Positions 52,292-60,918 of a stretch of 64,000 bases of DNA are shown piece by piece. The translations under genes were made by a program, and so were the position numbers. Each line of letters opens with the position of its first letter. The first letter of the stretch is position 1. The notes under the pieces were generated by a model. That model made no database searches and was not told where the DNA came from. It worked only from the letters and a program-made list of their open reading frames with translations. Source of the stretch: an uncultured Actinomycetota bacterium (GTDB lineage: Bacteria; Actinomycetota; Actinomycetes; JAHEKZ01). The DNA lies in assembly GCA_963718235.1 (NCBI GenBank), contig CAVQYR010000001.1, forward strand, positions 1,440,001-1,504,000. Direction: 5' to 3'.

Positions 52292-53116
52292 TCAGCCCCC
52301 GACGACGACGTCGGGCTCGACGAACGAGACCGGGGCCGCGAAGGCGGCCCGTCGGGCGGTACGACGCAGGGTACGCAGGACGGGGGCGCCGAGGACGAGC
52401 ACCAGCACCGTGTTGCCGACTGCGCGCGGGATGTCGAAACCGAGGGACGTCGCGAGCGTGTAGGCGAGCAGGCGGCCGGCGTTGTCGCCCACCGGGGCCC
52501 CCGCCACGAACGCGAGGTCGCCGCCCGTCGCGACGAACGGCCAGAACCAGAGGTTGAGCAGCAGCCCGTAGACCAGCCCCCCGACCCCCGCGTACCCGGC
52601 GACGAGAGCCACCTCTCGACGTCCGGTCGCGCGCGGCAGGAGTCCCGCCCCCAGACCGAGCCAGGCTGCGGCGAACATCTGGAACGGCAGCCAGGGGCCG
52701 ACCCCGCCAGTCACCAGCGCCGAGGCCAGCGTCGACGTGGCCCCGAGGGTGAACCCGAAGCCCGGCCCGAAGGCGCGACCGGCGAGCACGATCACCACGA
52801 ACATCGGCTGGAACCCGGTGACGCCCCCGCTCAGCGGCCGCAGCACGGCGGCCAGCGCGGACAGCACCCCCAGCAGCGCCACCGCCTTGGCGTCCATCGC
52901 ACCGTCGGCGACCTCGGCGAGCACCACGGCCAGCAGCATGGGCAGCAGCAGCACGAACAGCCATGCGCCGTCCGGCTGCTGCGCGAGCAGCGCGCCGTCG
53001 TCGACCAGGAACGGCCAGCCGAACGCGAGCAGCCCGACGGCAGACACGAGGCCGATCACCAGGGTGGACCGACGGCCGAGGCGGACGGCGCGCACTGGCG
53101 CCAGGCGGGGACTCAT
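52292..53116 (-). CDS. ECF transporter S component (CbrT-like, corrinoid)
   Basis: G..FGPGFGF.LG, GGVGPWLPFQM and FDIPRAVGN motifs; within the riboswitch operon. Confidence 0.88.
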   Translation of the reverse strand: MSPRLAPVRAVRLGRRSTLVIGLVSAVGLLAFGWPFLVDDGALLAQQPDGAWLFVLLLPMLLAVVLAEVADGAMDAKAVALLGVLSALAAVLRPLSGGVTGFQPMFVVIVLAGRAFGPGFGFTLGATSTLASALVTGGVGPWLPFQMFAAAWLGLGAGLLPRATGRREVALVAGYAGVGGLVYGLLLNLWFWPFVATGGDLAFVAGAPVGDNAGRLLAYTLATSLGFDIPRAVGNTVLVLVLGAPVLRTLRRTARRAAFAAPVSFVEPDVVVGG

Positions 53117-54762
53117 CCGGCCTCCCTCAGGCTCGTCGCGACCTCGCGGACGGTCAGCCACGGCAGGGGGGCCAGCACCTTGGCCACCTGGGGCGCGAAC
53201 TGCGGCGACGCCAGCAGGACCTCGCGAACCGGACCGTCGGCGACGACCTCCCCGTCGGCGAGGACCACGACCCGGGTGGCGGCCTCGGCGACGAGCTCGA
53301 CGTCGTGGGTGGCCAGGACGACCGACCGGCCGGCGGCGGCTCGCTGGGTCAGCAGGTCGACCAGGCGGGACTTGGTCGGGTAGTCCAGGCCCCGGGTCGG
53401 CTCGTCCAGGAGCAGCAGGGGTGGGTCTGCGGCCACGATCACGGCGAGGGCGAGCGCCAGCCGCTGCCCCTCGGACAGGTCGCGCGGGTGGGTGGTGTCC
53501 TCGACGCCCGGGGCCAGGGTCTCGAGCAGCCGCCGGGTGGTTCCTCGGGTGACCGCGGCGTCGTGGTCGGCGTCGGCACACTCGTGCCCGACGGTCTCCG
53601 ACCACAACAGGTCGGCCGGCTCCTGTGGCACCAGCCCGACCAGGCGCACGAGCGCGACCGGCGACAGCGCTGCCGGGTCGTCGGCTCCGACCCGAAGGCT
53701 GCCGCCCGAGGGGTGCGTCAGCCCCACGCAGGTGCGCATCAGGGTGCTCTTGCCCGCGCCGTTGCGGCCCATCAGGGCCACGACCTCGCCCGGGTGCACC
53801 TGCAGGTCGACCTGGTCGAGGGCCGTGGTGGCACCCAAGGTGACGCACAGCCGAGACGCGGTCAGCGACGCGGCGGTCGAGCCGCCCAGGGCCGCCCCTC
53901 GGTCGACCACGGCCGGCGGCGCGAGCTCGTCCAGCCGGGCCCGCAGGAGGGTCGACTGACGGCGGGCGTCGCGCACGCTCACCGGGAGGGGTGCCCAGCC
54001 ATGGGCCCGGGCCAGCTCGACGACCGGCGGCACGATCGGGAGGTCCGGCAGCATCTCGGCCGTCGGGCCGGAGGACACCGTGCCCGAGCCGTCGACCAGG
54101 ATCACCCGGTCGGCGAACTGCACGACCCGCTCGAGCCGGTGCTCGGCGAGCAGGACGGTGAGTCCGAGGTCGTGCACGAGGCGGTGCACGGCCGCCAGCA
54201 CCTCCTCCGCCGCGTTGGGGTCCAGAGCCGAGGTCGGTTCGTCGAGCACGAGCACCTTGGGATGGGTCGTGAGCACCGATCCGATGGCGACCCGCTGCTG
54301 CTGCCCTCCGGAGAGGCTGCGCAGTGGTCGGTCGCGCAGCTCCTGCAGACCGAGCAGGTCGAGGGTCTCCTCGACGCGGCGGCGCATGACGTCCGGCGCG
54401 AGACCGATCGCCTCCATGGCGTAGGCCAGCTCGTCCTCGACGGTGTCCGTGACGAACCCGGCCCGCGGGTCCTGCAGGACGACGCCCACGACGTCGGCCA
54501 GCTCGCGGGGCGGGTGGGTGCGGGTGTCGCGACCGTCGACGGTCACCCGCCCGTGCAGGACGCCGCCGGTGAAGTGGGGGACGAGTCCGTTGACCGCGCG
54601 CAGGAGGGTCGACTTGCCGGCCCCGGTACGACCGACGACCAGCGCGAGCTCACCTTCGGGGACGGTGAACGAGACGTCGCGCAGCACCGGGGCGACCTCC
54701 GGGCCGCTTCGTGGCTGGGCGGGGTCGGGGTAGACCACGGTGACCCGGTCGAAGGTGATCAC
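53113..54762 (-). CDS. ECF transporter tandem ATPase (A-A')
   Basis: Two ABC domains: GRTGAGKS/LSGGQ/DEPT and GRNGAGKS/LSEGQ/DEPT. Confidence 0.93.
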   Translation of the reverse strand: MITFDRVTVVYPDPAQPRSGPEVAPVLRDVSFTVPEGELALVVGRTGAGKSTLLRAVNGLVPHFTGGVLHGRVTVDGRDTRTHPPRELADVVGVVLQDPRAGFVTDTVEDELAYAMEAIGLAPDVMRRRVEETLDLLGLQELRDRPLRSLSGGQQQRVAIGSVLTTHPKVLVLDEPTSALDPNAAEEVLAAVHRLVHDLGLTVLLAEHRLERVVQFADRVILVDGSGTVSSGPTAEMLPDLPIVPPVVELARAHGWAPLPVSVRDARRQSTLLRARLDELAPPAVVDRGAALGGSTAASLTASRLCVTLGATTALDQVDLQVHPGEVVALMGRNGAGKSTLMRTCVGLTHPSGGSLRVGADDPAALSPVALVRLVGLVPQEPADLLWSETVGHECADADHDAAVTRGTTRRLLETLAPGVEDTTHPRDLSEGQRLALALAVIVAADPPLLLLDEPTRGLDYPTKSRLVDLLTQRAAAGRSVVLATHDVELVAEAATRVVVLADGEVVADGPVREVLLASPQFAPQVAKVLAPLPWLTVREVATSLREAG

Positions 54763-55896
54763 ACGACCACCTCGGAGCGGTCAGTCGAGACGGCCGGGGT
54801 GCGTCGCGGGGGGGCAGACCGGTGCTCGACCTGGGCCCGCACAGGCGCTGGAGCCACCCACGCCGGCAGCAGGGCGACCAGGATGCACAGCGAAGGCCAC
54901 GACCGGCAGTGGTGGCCAGGTGCCGGCCGGGGGAGCAAGCACCGACGCCCCCTGTGCCGCCAACCCGGACACCACGACTGCGGGCAGGAGTCCCGACCCG
55001 GCGGTGACCCACTCCGGCCACGCCCACGGGTCGGGTCGGTAGACGGTGCGCACATGTCGTCGTCCGGCCCGGGCCATGCCCCCGACTGCCGACACCGAGC
55101 CGAACAGCACCAGGCCCAGCCCGACCAGCCCGGGGCGGGAGGCGTCGAGCAGGCCGTAGGTGCCCACGAGCACCCCGATCAGTCCACCGATCACCAGGCC
55201 CCCGGTGACCCAGCGTTCGCGGGGTGGCAGGTGCCTCGATCGGCCGTAGCCTCGGGAGTCGAGCGCCGCGGCCAGCAGCAGGGACCGTTCGAGGGCGGCG
55301 TCGAGCACCGGGCGGGCGGTCGCTGCCCAGGCGCGGACCCCGGTGTCGCTGCGGCCCCGCAGACGCCGGGCGTGACGCACCTGCTGGACGTGGCTGACCG
55401 TCTGCGGAACGACCGTCAGCGCGACGACGAGAGCGACGCCGACCTCGTACAGGGCGCCCGGCACCGACTTGAGCAGTCGGGTGGGCGCCGCGAGGGCGCT
55501 CGCTGCGCCGACGCAGACCAGGATCGTGGCCAGCTGCAGTCCGGCGTACACCGCGCCCACGAGCGCCTCCACGGTGACCGGACCGCCGAGGCGTGCGCCG
55601 GCCATCCAGTCCGGCAGGGTGGCCGAGGGCAGGGTGAAGGCGACCGTGCCGGGGACCTCCGGACCGAACAGGGCCTCGAACACCACGCGCACGACGAGGA
55701 CGAGCCCGCCGATCATCACGAATGCCTTGAACGACGACGCCCACGGTGCGTCGGTGCGTCGAGCAGCGACGACGAACCCGGCCACGACGATCAGGGTCAG
55801 CAGGAGCAGGGGGTTCAGCGTCCGCGTGGCGGTGGCGGCCAGACCGAGCGCCCACAGCCACCAGGCCCCGGCGTGCAGGGTCCGCTGGCGGCTCAC
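54759..55896 (-). CDS. ECF transporter T component (EcfT/CbiQ-like), frameshift near 54890
   Basis: LHAGAWW, ARRLRG, ALERS..LAAALDSRGYG and T.YRPDPW motifs. Confidence 0.88.
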
Positions 55897-56819
55897 GCCC
55901 GGGCCCGTCTGCGTCGGGACACCAGCAGCGCGGCGCCGCCCAGAGCGGAGAGGGCGACCACCGCGACGACGACACCGGTCGGGCTGCCGGCCGTGGGCGC
56001 CGGGGGAGTGGTCACGGTCGCGGCGGCGACCGGCGTGGCTTCTGGACCTGACGGGTCCGGGGGAGAGGACCCGGCAGTGCCGGCCGACCCAGGGTTGGCC
56101 CGGTCCGGCTTCCCGGTTGGGTCGTCGGTGCGACCGGGCGAGGTCTTCGGCTGCGGGTGCGGGTCGTTGGTGCGCTCGCCGCTGCCGGCGGAGCCGCCCT
56201 GGGACGCCCCACCGGTGGCTCCCGGAGAGCCGGTGCCCGAGCCTGACCCCGGGCCGGCGCCCGCACCACCGTCGTCGGTGGGCGGATCGCTGACCGGCTC
56301 GCCACAGCCGCGAGCGGGGTAGCCACCGATACCGCAGACCAGGCCGGACTCGACTCGCAGGCTGGCGTAGTCGTCGAGCACGGCGTAGCCGTTGGCCGAG
56401 GTCGGCACGACGGCGCAGTGGGTGACGACCCCTGCTGGGGGGGTCACTCCTGGTGGCGCGTCGGACGCCGAGCCGTAGTCCACGACGAGCGCGACCCGCT
56501 TGCTCCCCGCGACCGGCGGGGTCGAGCCGCACACTGCCGAGAACCCCTTGGCCGTCCGCGGGGGCGCCGTCGACGTGCTGGCCGCGCTCACCGCGAACCG
56601 CCAGCCCTCGACCGCGCCGTCGGCCGGCACCCGTGACGCCCCCACGGTGGCGAAGGACCAGCCGGAGTCGCCGCCGGTCCAGTAGGTCCAGAAGCGGTAG
56701 CTCGTGGCCTCCGCCTCGCCCGGGCCGGCCACGATGCCGACCAGCGCAGCGGCCATCGCGAGCAGCACGACCACCCCGACCCGGGCCGGCCGGGGCGAGG
56801 CGCTGGCGTCAGTGCGCAT
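55893..56819 (-). CDS. SCO2322-family exported, C-terminally membrane-anchored protein (candidate corrinoid-binding)
   Basis: Signal; YRFWTYW, PADGAVEGWRF, GLVCGIGGYP..GC; Pro/Gly linker; TM followed by RRRR. Confidence 0.8.
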   Translation of the reverse strand: MRTDASASPRPARVGVVVLLAMAAALVGIVAGPGEAEATSYRFWTYWTGGDSGWSFATVGASRVPADGAVEGWRFAVSAASTSTAPPRTAKGFSAVCGSTPPVAGSKRVALVVDYGSASDAPPGVTPPAGVVTHCAVVPTSANGYAVLDDYASLRVESGLVCGIGGYPARGCGEPVSDPPTDDGGAGAGPGSGSGTGSPGATGGASQGGSAGSGERTNDPHPQPKTSPGRTDDPTGKPDRANPGSAGTAGSSPPDPSGPEATPVAAATVTTPPAPTAGSPTGVVVAVVALSALGGAALLVSRRRRARA

Positions 56820-56834
56820 GTCCTGGCCTCGCTG

Positions 56835-57933
56835 TCACGACGTGATCGACCCCTGGATGCGGGACACGAGGTCGACACCGTTGACGTCGCGGGCGTCGCC
56901 TCGGGTCGCCCGTTCGGTCAGGACGAGCAGGGCGGCCGCACCGGGCAGCACGAACCGGTTCTTGTCCAGCACGAAGACGCGGACGTCTCGTTCGAGGACG
57001 GCACTGGCCACCCGGACCTGCCGCGGGGCGGTCTGGGCTGCGACGAGTGACAGCACGGCGTTGGCGGTGCTGCCGTAGTCGACCCCCGGGCCGAACACCG
57101 CCGGGATCGTCCCACCGTTGGCCCGCAGCCGGGACGCCAGGTAGGCGGCCGCGGCCTGCCGGGTCGACCCGCGGGAAGCGCCCTTGGCGCAGTCCAGGGG
57201 GGTCGGGGCGGACCAGCTGCGGGCCGGGCGAACCGGAAGCGAGGCCCGGGCCAGGGCTTGCGTGGCCTGGGCCGTGGCGAAGTCGTTGGGCTGGGGGGTC
57301 GCCTGGAGCTGGTAGTCCAGGGCGCCGCGGCTCTCGACCGGCGCGGAGCAGCGCAGCTGGGCCTGACGCAGGAACCCGAACCCCGTCCCGTTGTTGGTCA
57401 CGCTGGCCGGCCCGACCCCCATCGCGACCAGGGCCTGCAGGGCCAGACCGGTGGAGTTCGTGTCCGCGCCCCATCCGCTGCTGTACTCCCACCCACCGCC
57501 ATCGAGCTGGGTGCGCTCCAGCCAGTCGGAGCCCGCGCGTGGCGGCACCGTCACGGCCGAGCCGGTGCAGGGCGATGACCGCGAGGGCAGTCGCGTTGGA
57601 GTCACCGGCCGCGCAGGGGAGGGTCAGGTCCGGACGAAAGGACGTCCAGCGCCCGTTCGGGCACTGCTGGCGCAGCAACCAGCGGACCGCGGCCGGGTCG
57701 ACCCGGCCGCGCGCGGCATGCAGCGCGATCAGGCTGATGCTCTGCCGGTACACGCCGTCGTAGGTGGGGTCCTGCCGACCGTAGAGGCCGGACCGGCTGG
57801 GGTCTGAGACCGCTCGGGGCGCGGACTGCGGTGCCGTCGCGTCCGCGGGGGTGGCGACGACGAGCAGGGTGGCGACGACGGCGAGCGCCATCGTCGCCAG
57901 GGGGCCGGACAACCGGCCGACGGTGCTGTGCAC
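56835..57933 (-). CDS. Secreted prenyltransferase/squalene-cyclase-repeat (alpha/alpha barrel) protein, frameshift near 57535
   Basis: WLLRQQCPNGRW, DSNATALA, WL..TQLDGGGW and DTNSTGLALQAL QW-like repeats; signal peptide. Confidence 0.8.
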
Positions 57934-58094
57934 GGGCGGGCCTTTCTGGTGAGCGATCCCGGACGAGGGCCCGAGAACGCCGCTCACGAGAACGCCCCTG
58001 CCGCCATGGGCTGGCGACAAGGGGCGCGGACTCGGGCTCGGCAGCCCGGGCTCCGCCCCGTGAACCTCGACGGTGTTGGGGAGCCGCTCGTCGG

Positions 58095-58185
58095 CGCCAG
58101 GTGCTCCGGCTCGCCATGTCGCCTGGGGGCGCACGGCCTACGGTTGCGGGTCAGCGCCGGCTTCTGACCGGCTTCCCCTGGACGT
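58095..58185 (-). promoter_or_regulatory. Cobalamin riboswitch
   Basis: Minus strand CCAGGGGAAGCCGGTCAGAAGCCGGCGCTGACCCGCAACCGT...GAGCCGGAGCACCTGG matches the B12-element core; upstream of ECF/cob genes. Confidence 0.9.
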
Positions 58186-58299
58186 CGACGCAGTGGAGTT
58201 GTGGTCCGCATCCGACCACGCCAGGGTGGGCCGCGTCAAAGGACTCCCCGAGCGCGGCGCGGGCCGCCGGGGCCTCGGACACGGTCGGCGGGAGCTGCG

Positions 58300-59286: not shown

Positions 59287-60285
59287 TCAGGCGCGGGGGT
59301 TGGGCGACTCGGTGAGCGCGGGGTCGCGCTCGGCCACGGGGGCCAGCACCGCGTCGATCTGGGCCAGCACGGACGGGTCGAGGGTGAGGCCGGACGCCTT
59401 GGCGTTCTCCCGGATCTGCTCCGGCCGCGACGCACCGACGATGGCGGCTGCGACGTTGGGGTTCTGCAGCACCCAGGCGACCGCCAGCGTGGCCATCGAG
59501 ACCCCGACCTCGTCGGCGATCGGGCGAAGGCCCTGGACGGCGGTGAGCACCTCGTCGGTGAGGTAGTCGGCGAGGAAGCCCCCGGCCTCGGGGTCTGCAC
59601 CGCGCGACCCTTCGGGCGGTGTCTGCCCCGGGAGGTACTTGCCGGTCAGCACCCCCTGGGCCATCGGTGACCACACGATCTGGGACAGCCCCAGCTCGTC
59701 GCAGGTCGGCACGACCTCGGCCTCGATGACCCTCCAGAGCATCGAGTACTCCGGCTGGCTGGACACGAACCGGTCGCAGCCGAGCGTGTCCTGCAGCTCG
59801 ACGCCGTCCCGGATCTGGCCGGCTCGCCACTCCGACACCCCGACGTACAGCACCTTCCCCTGACGGATGAGGTCGTCGAAGGCCCTGACCACCTCGTCCA
59901 GCGGGGCCTCGTGGTCGAAGCGGTGCGCCTGGTACAGGTCGAGGTAGTCGGTGCCCAGTCGCTTCAGTGAGGCGTGGCAGGACTCCATGATGTGCTTGCG
60001 CGACAGACCGCGGTCGTTCACGCCAGGACCGGTCGGCCAGTACACCTTGCTGAAGATCTCCAGCCCCTCCCGACGCTGCCCTTGCAGCGCGTAGCCGAGC
60101 GCGGTCTCCGCCCTGCCCTGGGAGTAGACGTCGGCCGTGTCGAAGGTGGTGATGCCGACGTCGAGCGCGGCATGGACCACGTCACGTGCTGCGGTGTCGT
60201 CGATCTGGGCGCCGTGGGTGAGCCAGTTTCCGTAGGTGATCTCACTGATCTTCAGGCCGCTGCGGCCGAGGCGTCGGTGCTCCAT
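59287..60285 (-). CDS. Aldo/keto reductase
   Basis: FDTADVY, SLKRLGTDYLDLYQAH and WSPMAQGVLTGKY motifs. Confidence 0.96.
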   Translation of the reverse strand: MEHRRLGRSGLKISEITYGNWLTHGAQIDDTAARDVVHAALDVGITTFDTADVYSQGRAETALGYALQGQRREGLEIFSKVYWPTGPGVNDRGLSRKHIMESCHASLKRLGTDYLDLYQAHRFDHEAPLDEVVRAFDDLIRQGKVLYVGVSEWRAGQIRDGVELQDTLGCDRFVSSQPEYSMLWRVIEAEVVPTCDELGLSQIVWSPMAQGVLTGKYLPGQTPPEGSRGADPEAGGFLADYLTDEVLTAVQGLRPIADEVGVSMATLAVAWVLQNPNVAAAIVGASRPEQIRENAKASGLTLDPSVLAQIDAVLAPVAERDPALTESPNPRA

Positions 60286-60309: not shown

Positions 60310-60918
60310 TCACGGCGCGAGCGGGTCGACCTCGCCCTTCAGGGCCTTGCGGCTCCAGCCCACCGCGACCGTGGGCGGGGGCATGCGCCGTTTGCGTGAC
60401 TGGATGGAGCGCTGGAAGGCGTACGGCAGGGTGCCGCGACGGTCGACCTTGTCCGGCACCTCACGCTTCAGCACGCGGCTGAGCCCGGTGAGGGCGATCA
60501 CCGTGTCGACGATGATCAGCAGGTAGTAGCCGAGCAGGAACCACATCGCGAACGCCTTGACCTCCTCGACCGGAAAGACGAGCAGGATCAGGGCGATGAT
60601 CACGGCGGGCCAGAAGAACTCCCCGGCCCCCCGGCGTCCGTCGACGTAGCGACGGGCGATCTTGCGCGACGGACCCTGGTCGCGGGCCGGGAAACGGCGC
60701 TCGTCGCCGGCCTTGATCGCGGCCGTCTGCTCCTCGCGCTCCCGGGTGCGCTCGGCGCGCTCGCGGGCCCGGGCCTCCTTGCGGTCCTTGGGTGGAGCGG
60801 TGCGCTGGCGTCGCGCGGCCTCGGCGTCGCGTCGTTTCGGCGTCGGGTGCCCCTTGCCTTGCGGCTTCTCGAGGCCCTCGACGGCCGGTTCCACGGGGGT
60901 CGTACGGCGTCCGAACAC
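60310..60918 (-). CDS. DUF3043 family protein
   Basis: GKG.PTPKRR.AE, RDQGP and R.RRMPPP motifs; two TM helices. Confidence 0.9.
   Translation of the reverse strand: MFGRRTTPVEPAVEGLEKPQGKGHPTPKRRDAEAARRQRTAPPKDRKEARARERAERTREREEQTAAIKAGDERRFPARDQGPSRKIARRYVDGRRGAGEFFWPAVIIALILLVFPVEEVKAFAMWFLLGYYLLIIVDTVIALTGLSRVLKREVPDKVDRRGTLPYAFQRSIQSRKRRMPPPTVAVGWSRKALKGEVDPLAP

Follow-up and report, generated by a model that had tools for sequence, protein, structure and literature searches.

A SCO2321/SCO2322-type gene pair between a B12 riboswitch and an energy-coupling factor transporter: a probable actinobacterial surface trap for B12-like cofactors

Organization of the operon

The 64,000-nucleotide stretch of an uncultured Actinomycetota bacterium analysed here (contig CAVQYR010000001.1, positions 1,440,001 to 1,504,000; referred to below as the window) contains an operon that lies entirely on the minus strand. 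A cobalamin-riboswitch-like aptamer at its head is followed by two genes for extracytoplasmic proteins, gene 1 of the SCO2321 type and gene 2 of the SCO2322 type, and by the three genes of an energy-coupling factor (ECF) transporter, in the order aptamer, gene 1, gene 2, EcfT, EcfA-A' and EcfS. The pair probably serves in Actinobacteria to trap B12-like cofactors at the cell surface. The features of the operon, in window coordinates, are:

58068..58190, minus strand: cobalamin-riboswitch-like aptamer at the operon head, about 135 nucleotides before the gene 1 start
57532..57933, minus strand: N-terminal part of gene 1 (frame a), encoding the signal peptide and the initial third of a SCO2321-type α/α toroid
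57531..57535, minus strand: frameshift site of gene 1, one surplus base relative to intact relatives
56835..57533, minus strand: C-terminal part of gene 1 (frame b), with the remaining toroid and the stop codon
55893..56819, minus strand: gene 2, SCO2322 family, 308 amino acids, matched by NF040672
gene 2, about residues 1-38, minus strand: signal peptide, read from the sequence
56289..56705, minus strand: β-rich domain of gene 2 (residues 39-177), from NF040672 and an AlphaFold2 (AF2) model
55917..55979, minus strand: transmembrane anchor of gene 2 (about residues 281-301), a hydrophobic stretch followed by RRRR
54781..55897, minus strand: EcfT, CbiQ-like transmembrane coupling component, GTG start, weak Pfam CbiQ match
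53113..54762, minus strand: fused double ATPase EcfA-A', 549 amino acids, matched by Pfam ABC_tran, TIGR04521 and TIGR04520
52292..53116, minus strand: EcfS, substrate-specific S component, 274 amino acids, matched by Pfam ECF_trnsprt (PF12822)

Gene 1 starts with a GTG at 57933 and reaches its stop codon at 56835, and gene 2 follows after a spacing of 15 nucleotides, with an ATG start at 56819 and its stop at 55893. The interval 55893-57933, to which the original prediction had assigned the pair, extends exactly from the stop of gene 2 to the GTG start of gene 1. The sequence can also be read to show that the TGA stop of gene 2 overlaps the GTG start of EcfT as GTGA and that the stop of EcfA-A' overlaps the ATG of EcfS (53116) as ATGA. 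The original description of the locus was confirmed in part: its coordinates, gene families and motifs agree with the present analysis, whereas gene 1 does not form one open frame and the riboswitch scores below threshold.

On their profile matches, the three downstream genes are assigned to an ECF transporter with a dedicated energising module, composed of EcfT, two ATPase domains and an S component. The match of EcfT to Pfam CbiQ (21 bits, E 2.9e-4) falls short of the gathering score, which is 25. EcfA-A' matches ABC_tran with 187 bits in two stretches, and the ECF ATPase models TIGR04521 and TIGR04520 with 295 and 291 bits, each again in two stretches. EcfS matches PF12822 over residues 77-242 with 50.2 bits, against 30.7 for the model, and carries about 75 residues before this domain. 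Comparison of EcfS with curated S-component subfamilies gave nothing beyond a weak FolT-family match, with 22.6 bits and a cut-off of 60.

Riboswitch control and conservation of the gene pair

One genome per species was scanned for gene 2, which yielded at least 568 confirmed relatives, and the best 80 loci were kept for comparison. The named loci among these are all from Actinomycetota and comprise Streptomyces, Kitasatospora, Nanopelagicales, Intrasporangium, Dermatophilaceae, Nocardioidaceae, Micrococcales, Segeticoccus and metagenome-assembled genomes labelled Bifidobacteriaceae. Gene 1 lies immediately upstream of gene 2 in 67 of the 80 loci, is absent from 10 for which at least 1.4 kb of upstream sequence is available, and is undecidable in 3 where the contig ends. 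All three ECF genes are found downstream in 67 of the 80 loci; they are incomplete in 11 with short stored downstream sequence and absent from 2 (L008 and L017) with at least 4.5 kb of downstream sequence.

In the window, the Rfam model RF00174 matches positions 58099-58178 with 26.5 bits (E 1.6e-4), below the gathering score of 31.5 and over the core only (model positions 45-169 of 189), and an Rfam scan of the whole window at the gathering score gave 0 matches. By comparison, an nhmmer profile built from 15 Rfam-passing elements of the relatives matches the window at 58190-58068 with 84 bits (E 3.8e-24). Because of this homology, the window element is accepted as a genuine, but divergent or short, cobalamin riboswitch. 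The leader RNA folds with a z-score of -3.1. A riboswitch-like element is detected by nhmmer upstream of the first gene in 75 of the 80 loci, and 3 of the 5 misses are contig ends. Among the loci tested with Rfam, a passing cobalamin riboswitch precedes the operon in 9 of 10 with both genes, is the immediate upstream neighbour of gene 2 in 4 of the 8 that lack gene 1, and precedes gene 1 in both loci in which the pair has no adjacent ECF genes (L008 and L017). The placement of the pair as the first two genes after a riboswitch therefore holds by homology and by its recurrence among the relatives, although RF00174 stays below its gathering score in the window itself. The tight linkage to a dedicated ECF transporter under B12-riboswitch control, as had been proposed, is likewise borne out by the locus counts.

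In L008 (5663-7882) and L017 (5703 to about 7900), the two genes form a unit behind an AdoCbl-II aptamer (RF01689), with no ECF genes within 7 kb, and the pair is followed by unrelated genes on the opposite strand, which in L008 encode an aldo/keto reductase, a DUF3043 protein and PspA. From the locus counts, the Rfam results and these two-gene units it follows that the link of the gene pair to B12 does not depend on the transporter, that gene 2 is the constant member of the system, and that gene 1 is dispensable in some lineages.

The loci without gene 1 are L011, L027, L039, L048, L052, L065, L068, L071, L073 and L078. They include loci labelled Intrasporangium, Dermatophilaceae and Nocardioidaceae, and a riboswitch-like element lies directly before gene 2. 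In the window, two minus-strand open reading frames (59287-60285 and 60310-60918) resemble, by eye, the genes for the aldo/keto reductase and the DUF3043-like protein of L008 (8181-9962, identified with Pfam), which suggests a conserved neighbourhood unrelated to B12.

The two extracytoplasmic proteins

The NCBIfam model of the SCO2321 family, NF053823, matches the N-terminal half of gene 1 in the window with 106.8 bits over profile positions 4-121 of 405, and the C-terminal half with 109.3 bits over positions 126-351. The equivalog cut-off of 300 bits, which applies to all 405 positions including a C-terminal anchor region, is not reached by the window halves, which cover positions 4-351 only. 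The intact anchorless relatives in L001, L003 and L008 score 204-234 bits, and the Streptomyces protein of L015 scores 541 bits. By these profile matches, gene 1 is a clear SCO2321 homologue from a divergent anchorless subgroup, broken in this copy. Its first 134 codons are in one reading frame and the remaining 231 in another. A tblastn comparison with the intact L003 protein follows frame -2 down to 57532 (L003 residues 15-135) and frame -3 from 57533 (residues 136-366), with identities of 59% for the N-terminal and 52% for the C-terminal half; the switch between 57532 and 57533 therefore indicates one additional base near 57531-57535. The gene is a single intact open reading frame in all 66 relatives that have both halves. 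The frameshift has two possible explanations, a mistake in the assembly or a gene that was inactivated recently; in the second case it would be an early stage of the loss of gene 1 observed elsewhere in the family. The C-terminal piece is listed in the protein collection as a separate protein of 239 amino acids, P0215.

Because the window copy is broken, the fold of gene 1 was modelled on its closest intact relative, L003, with 122 aligned sequences. The model has a predicted local distance difference test (pLDDT) score of 95.4 and a predicted template modelling (pTM) score of 0.93, and contains 13 helices. A Foldseek search of the Protein Data Bank (PDB) with this model gave 120 matches at E≤0.001. 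The top matches, with TM-scores of 0.5-0.6, are 6ij1, squalene-hopene cyclase, drimenyl diphosphate synthase, MmpH, the β subunit of RabGGTase and thioester domains; no transcobalamin, intrinsic factor or haptocorrin is found among the best 50 of the 120 matches. The α domain of transcobalamin belongs to the same broad class of α6/α6-type toroids, according to Burroughs et al. (PMC1796856). A Pfam scan of the 122 members of the gene 1 family at E≤0.01 gave these matches:

SQHop_cyclase_C: 100 of 122 members
TED_complement: 56 of 122 members
Prenyltrans: 52 of 122 members
SQHop_cyclase_N: 47 of 122 members
Cobalamin_bind (PF01122): 15 of 122 members

The best E-value for Cobalamin_bind in the family is 1.2e-7, and in one member, P0137, the match reaches 31.5 bits and passes the gathering score of 25. 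With 16.3 bits, L003 falls short of that threshold, and the two window halves give no match to PF01122. The N-terminus of gene 1 is signal-like, as read from the sequence. The C-terminus is transmembrane-like in 39 of 66 relatives, and an anchor is absent from 27, including the closest ones, L001-L003. Anchoring appears to be lineage-specific: the copies of Streptomyces and Kitasatospora have a transmembrane-like tail, L005 and L006 have LPXTG-like motifs, and LPXTG matches occur in 7 of the 122 family members. On the basis of the L003 model, gene 1 reads as a non-catalytic secreted α/α toroid, which would share the broad fold class of the transcobalamin α domain but does not demonstrably belong to that family. 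The original prediction of a secreted α/α-barrel protein is thus upheld by the signal peptide, the NF053823 matches and the confident toroid model of a relative, with the reservation that the frame is broken in the window. In contrast, the specific relation to transcobalamin that it proposed is not recovered, and the Cobalamin_bind matches are those of a minority cross-match.

Gene 2 is matched by NF040672 with 158.3 bits, well above the cut-off of 85, with residues 36-177 aligned to the entire profile (positions 1-144 of 144), and its relatives bear the precomputed annotation PF28005. The protein contains an N-terminal signal-like segment, the SCO2322 domain, a low-complexity linker of ~100 amino acids, and a C-terminal hydrophobic stretch followed by RRRR, as read from the sequence. 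A transmembrane-like C-terminus is present in 75 of 78 complete relatives, and LPXTG matches occur in 7 of 120 family members. Gene 2 was therefore described correctly as a membrane-tethered SCO2322-family protein, and the signal-like N-termini of both proteins, together with the transmembrane-like C-termini of their relatives, agree with the predicted extracytoplasmic location of the pair. Four cysteines are invariant or nearly so in the family. The motifs to which the original prediction had drawn attention are located on invariant or near-invariant columns (W, DG.V.GWRF, KRV..D.G and C...C), and are conserved features rather than chance. A search with the SCO2322 domain in a library clustered at 50% identity gave 1682 representatives at E≤0.001, of which 798 reach E≤1e-10 and 373 reach E≤1e-30; the best 150 of the 1682 matches are family members only.

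The domain of gene 2 (residues 39-177) was modelled by AF2 with 120 sequences, with a pLDDT of 91.0 and a pTM of 0.85. In domain numbering, the modelled secondary structure elements are strands 11-21, 24-27 and 40-50 (A, B and C), a short helix 64-68, strands 77-85 and 102-110 (D and E), a helix 115-122, and a hairpin formed by strands 125-128 and 131-135 (F and G). The β domain of transcobalamin is a β-grasp, as stated in PMC1796856. In the model, the order of elements in gene 2 fits a transcobalamin-type β-grasp that has been opened after the hairpin insert and of which the old ends have been joined. Strands A, B and C would then be the equivalents of S3, S4 and S5, and strands D and E those of S1 and S2, with the helix and the hairpin following as in the original fold; the 26-residue connection from C to D, which includes the short helix, would form the crossover between two parallel strands. 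Such a permuted fold requires the strand order S3-S4-S5 / S1-S2-helix-hairpin and the sheet order 2-1-5-3-4, with S1 parallel to S5. The implied sheet order E-D-C-A-B was tested by pseudo-likelihood coevolution analysis with 336 sequences (effective number 234), where the fraction given is the share of random segment pairs that score as well:

Strands A and B: antiparallel favoured, fraction 0.012
Strands A and C: antiparallel favoured, fraction 0.022
Strands D and E: antiparallel favoured, fraction 0.032
Strands C and D: parallel favoured (0.91 versus 0.69), fraction 0.18, fifth of 21 pairs

In addition, the coupling of the helix to strands A, C, D and E exceeds expectation. The most economical reading of these data is that the SCO2322 domain may be a circularly permuted β-grasp of the transcobalamin β-domain type, although we regard it as tentative and put its probability somewhat short of one half. 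The proposed permutation is thus compatible with the order of the elements and, through weak coevolution signals, with three of the four strand pairings; the parallel pairing of C with D is favoured but not significant, and no fold or sequence match points to the permutation.

A putative corrinoid trap and its alternatives

We interpret the operon as a B12-repressed system through which a corrinoid, either cobalamin or a closely related precursor, is taken up by a dedicated ECF transporter with two extracytoplasmic accessory proteins, and estimate the probability of this reading at about 60%. When B12 is scarce, the riboswitch would permit expression, as expected from the behaviour of its class. 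The anchored SCO2322 domain, held on its flexible linker of ~100 residues, may then bind the corrinoid outside the membrane, and the SCO2321 toroid, where present, may close over the ligand-loaded SCO2322 domain as does the α domain of transcobalamin or intrinsic factor, which would raise affinity or selectivity. The S component would subsequently receive the ligand, and the EcfT/EcfA-A' module would import it. In such a mechanism SCO2321 would be an optional second jaw and not an obligate partner. The gene 1 proteins that have no anchor (27 of 66 lineages) would need a tethered partner for retention at the surface. Of the interpretation originally given to the locus, the location of the proteins, their regulation, the ECF linkage and the gene 1 toroid find support here, while the specific transcobalamin relation does not.

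Several observations weigh against a corrinoid trap of this kind, and they bear on both proteins, on their pairing and on the ligand. For gene 2, no family was matched by the window protein in a Pfam search at E≤1, and the corresponding search with 120 members at E≤10 showed neither DUF4430 nor SLBB nor transcobalamin among the 25 families listed out of 54. A full-family profile matched PDB sequences only through its low-complexity tail, with no cobalamin binder, and a profile of the domain only gave 0 matches. With the gene 2 model, Foldseek gave 0 matches in the PDB at E≤0.001; the best E-value was 1.9, and the nearest structures, CinA/CinB and transthyretin (E 1.9-10, TM-scores <0.21), were rejected as not meaningful. 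The ESM Atlas returned PF28005 only, and nothing usable once PF28005 was excluded. The proposed relation of gene 2 to DUF4430 or transcobalamin is thus not detected by hidden Markov models (HMMs), Foldseek or the ESM Atlas, methods of which Foldseek and the HMMs are blind to circular permutations. In addition, the parallel pairing of strands C and D, which a β-grasp requires, is not significant.

Alternatively, in the same genomic context, SCO2322 may be a new fold unrelated to the transcobalamin β domain and the two proteins may act independently, for example as separate binders or as a wall-spanning scaffold, with neither a permuted β-grasp nor a clamp. A confident gene 2 model without a structural neighbour in the PDB, the lack of any link outside PF28005 and the occurrence of gene 2 without gene 1 in 10 loci all fit this possibility. 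However, an undetected permutation would leave the same trace in Foldseek and HMM searches, the order of secondary structure elements and three of the four strand pairings fit a permuted β-grasp, and the adjacency of the genes in 67 of 80 loci and their two-gene riboswitch units in L008 and L017 speak against this alternative. We therefore regard a new fold with independent action as unlikely, although it deserves serious consideration.

With respect to the pairing of the proteins, gene 1 is absent from 10 of the 77 loci with enough upstream sequence, while gene 2, the riboswitch and the ECF genes are kept, and gene 1 is interrupted in the window itself. An obligate two-chain clamp is unlikely because ten lineages keep gene 2 without gene 1, and these lineages weaken the proposed clamp. 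A search for longer fusion proteins gave only P0307 (730 amino acids), which contains an internal gene 2 signal peptide and has an Arg-rich stretch in place of the gene 1 tail, and was rejected as a natural fusion of the two genes in favour of an apparent frameshift or read-through product. In P0368 (343 amino acids), likewise an apparent fusion, only the first ~146 residues of gene 1 are joined to the SCO2322 domain of gene 2. Prediction of a complex between SCO2321 and the SCO2322 domain of L003, with no ligand, gave an interface score (interaction prediction score from aligned errors, ipSAE) of 0.00 in two runs, which has no bearing on binding in either direction; a ligand-mediated interface, as in the transcobalamin family, is not expected to show in such a prediction. 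Intrinsic factor that has been cleaved retains tight cobalamin binding, in a ternary complex denoted IF30.Cbl.IF20 (PMC6257451). By analogy, Actinobacteria from Streptomyces to the streamlined freshwater Nanopelagicales may combine an ECF transporter with a two-chain transcobalamin analogue, in which SCO2322, as a permuted β-grasp, would be the β jaw on a membrane leash that binds the corrinoid first and then recruits SCO2321, as the fragments of intrinsic factor do; this detailed scheme is doubtful as a whole.

The toroid itself raises the question of an enzymatic function. A profile of the gene 1 family against PDB sequences matches squalene-hopene cyclase (E 2e-20) and other terpene cyclases, and is closer to these than to any cobalamin binder, none of which is found at E≤10. 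Together with the enzymes among the Foldseek matches (6ij1, drimenyl diphosphate synthase and MmpH) and the predominance of SQHop_cyclase_C, this would suit an extracellular terpene-cyclase-, prenyltransferase- or glycoside-hydrolase-like enzyme with an envelope component as its target, produced only under B12 scarcity. The matches to terpene cyclases are, however, driven by a repeat motif and run through several stretches of it. No alignment window in the gene 1 family contains a conserved DxDD, and D.DD occurs in 7 of 122 members and in none of these in a conserved column; no other acidic cluster is conserved, and the invariant positions are for the most part occupied by Gly, Gln, Thr and four cysteines. 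That an ECF transporter and a riboswitch constantly accompany the gene argues for transport, and an enzyme is very improbable. The class II terpene cyclases and prenyltransferase β toroids share the repeat motif with gene 1, which differs from them in its lack of a conserved DxDD, its secretion, its four conserved cysteines and its place in a transporter operon.

B12 riboswitches also regulate cobalt transporters and B12-independent isozymes, and the ligand is therefore not fixed by regulation alone. The ECF-type B12 importer ECF-CbrT of Lactobacillus delbrueckii, which to our knowledge works without extracytoplasmic accessory proteins, was not matched by the window S component in the PDB sequence search, in which no cobalamin S component was found and the sole match is FolT (E 0.024). 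This, and the CbiQ-like character of EcfT, would be compatible with a module that captures a ligand other than cobalamin, still coupled to B12 status, such as cobalt, an incomplete corrinoid, a lower-ligand base or another tetrapyrrole such as heme. A split pair of Lactobacillus sakei has been proposed to take up heme (bioRxiv 10.1101/864751), and the reviewers of PMC1796856 raised the caution that ligands in this clade may be diverse. On the other side, no CbiM/CbiN-type cobalt component was found with Pfam, the S component matching PF12822 instead, the riboswitch is present in 75 of the 80 loci, and a large toroid combined with a β domain would suit a large ligand better than a metal ion. 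Capture of such a ligand in place of cobalamin is accordingly quite improbable, and uptake of cobalamin or a close precursor is the reading that we retain.

The corrinoid trap can be compared with several known systems. Transcobalamin, intrinsic factor and haptocorrin, like the pair described here, consist of an α/α toroid and a small β-rich domain, and are extracellular, disulfide-bearing and linked to B12; the two-fragment form of intrinsic factor (IF30.Cbl.IF20, PMC6257451) still binds cobalamin, whereas the present pair is encoded by two separate genes. Terpene cyclases are nearer to the toroid of gene 1 than is Pfam Cobalamin_bind, and the gene 2 domain has no detectable sequence or Foldseek similarity to transcobalamin, its strand order would require a circular permutation, and its ligand binding is putative. 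According to PMC1796856, Gram-positive secreted or anchored proteins with a toroid and an SLBB domain, whose operons also contain genes for a CbiO-like ATPase and a CbiQ-like membrane protein, are predicted scavengers of B12 or its precursors. In those proteins the SLBB domain is recognisable and usually fused to the toroid, while SCO2322 is not recognisable as SLBB or DUF4430 in the searches made here, and in the consulted passages of that paper Actinobacteria are mentioned for ComEA only. In Lactobacillus sakei, Lsa1839 and Lsa1840 (lsa1836-1840 operon) are described as split β and α transcobalamin homologues in an operon with an ECF-type transporter (bioRxiv 10.1101/864751). By that description, and not by sequence, they are set apart from the present pair: they are from a Firmicute, they are assigned to heme uptake, and the β subunit, which was modelled on haptocorrin/transcobalamin templates, would be unpermuted.

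Extracytoplasmic transcobalamin-like capture ahead of an ECF-type importer is therefore a known idea, predicted in 2007 for Gram-positives, and a split pair has been described in L. sakei. A literature search (SCO2321-SCO2325 locus tags, DUF4430 with cobalamin, bacterial transcobalamin-like proteins) gave no study of the actinobacterial pair, with subscription journals mostly outside its coverage. New here are the actinobacterial pair itself, made up of named but uncharacterised families, a β partner, perhaps permuted, that existing domain libraries fail to recognise, and the comparative evidence for the β partner as the core of the system and the toroid as optional.

The SCO2322 family is large and widespread, and has no assigned function. 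If its members and their SCO2321 partners capture corrinoids, the way in which many Actinobacteria obtain B12 would be explained, both for producers such as Streptomyces and for aquatic lineages with small genomes. ECF transporters are not known to require an extracytoplasmic binding protein, and a trap of this kind, if true, would make extracytoplasmic capture a further step in the model of ECF transport. A permuted β-grasp, if proven, would mean that the binding domain of the transcobalamin type also exists in a form that current domain libraries miss.

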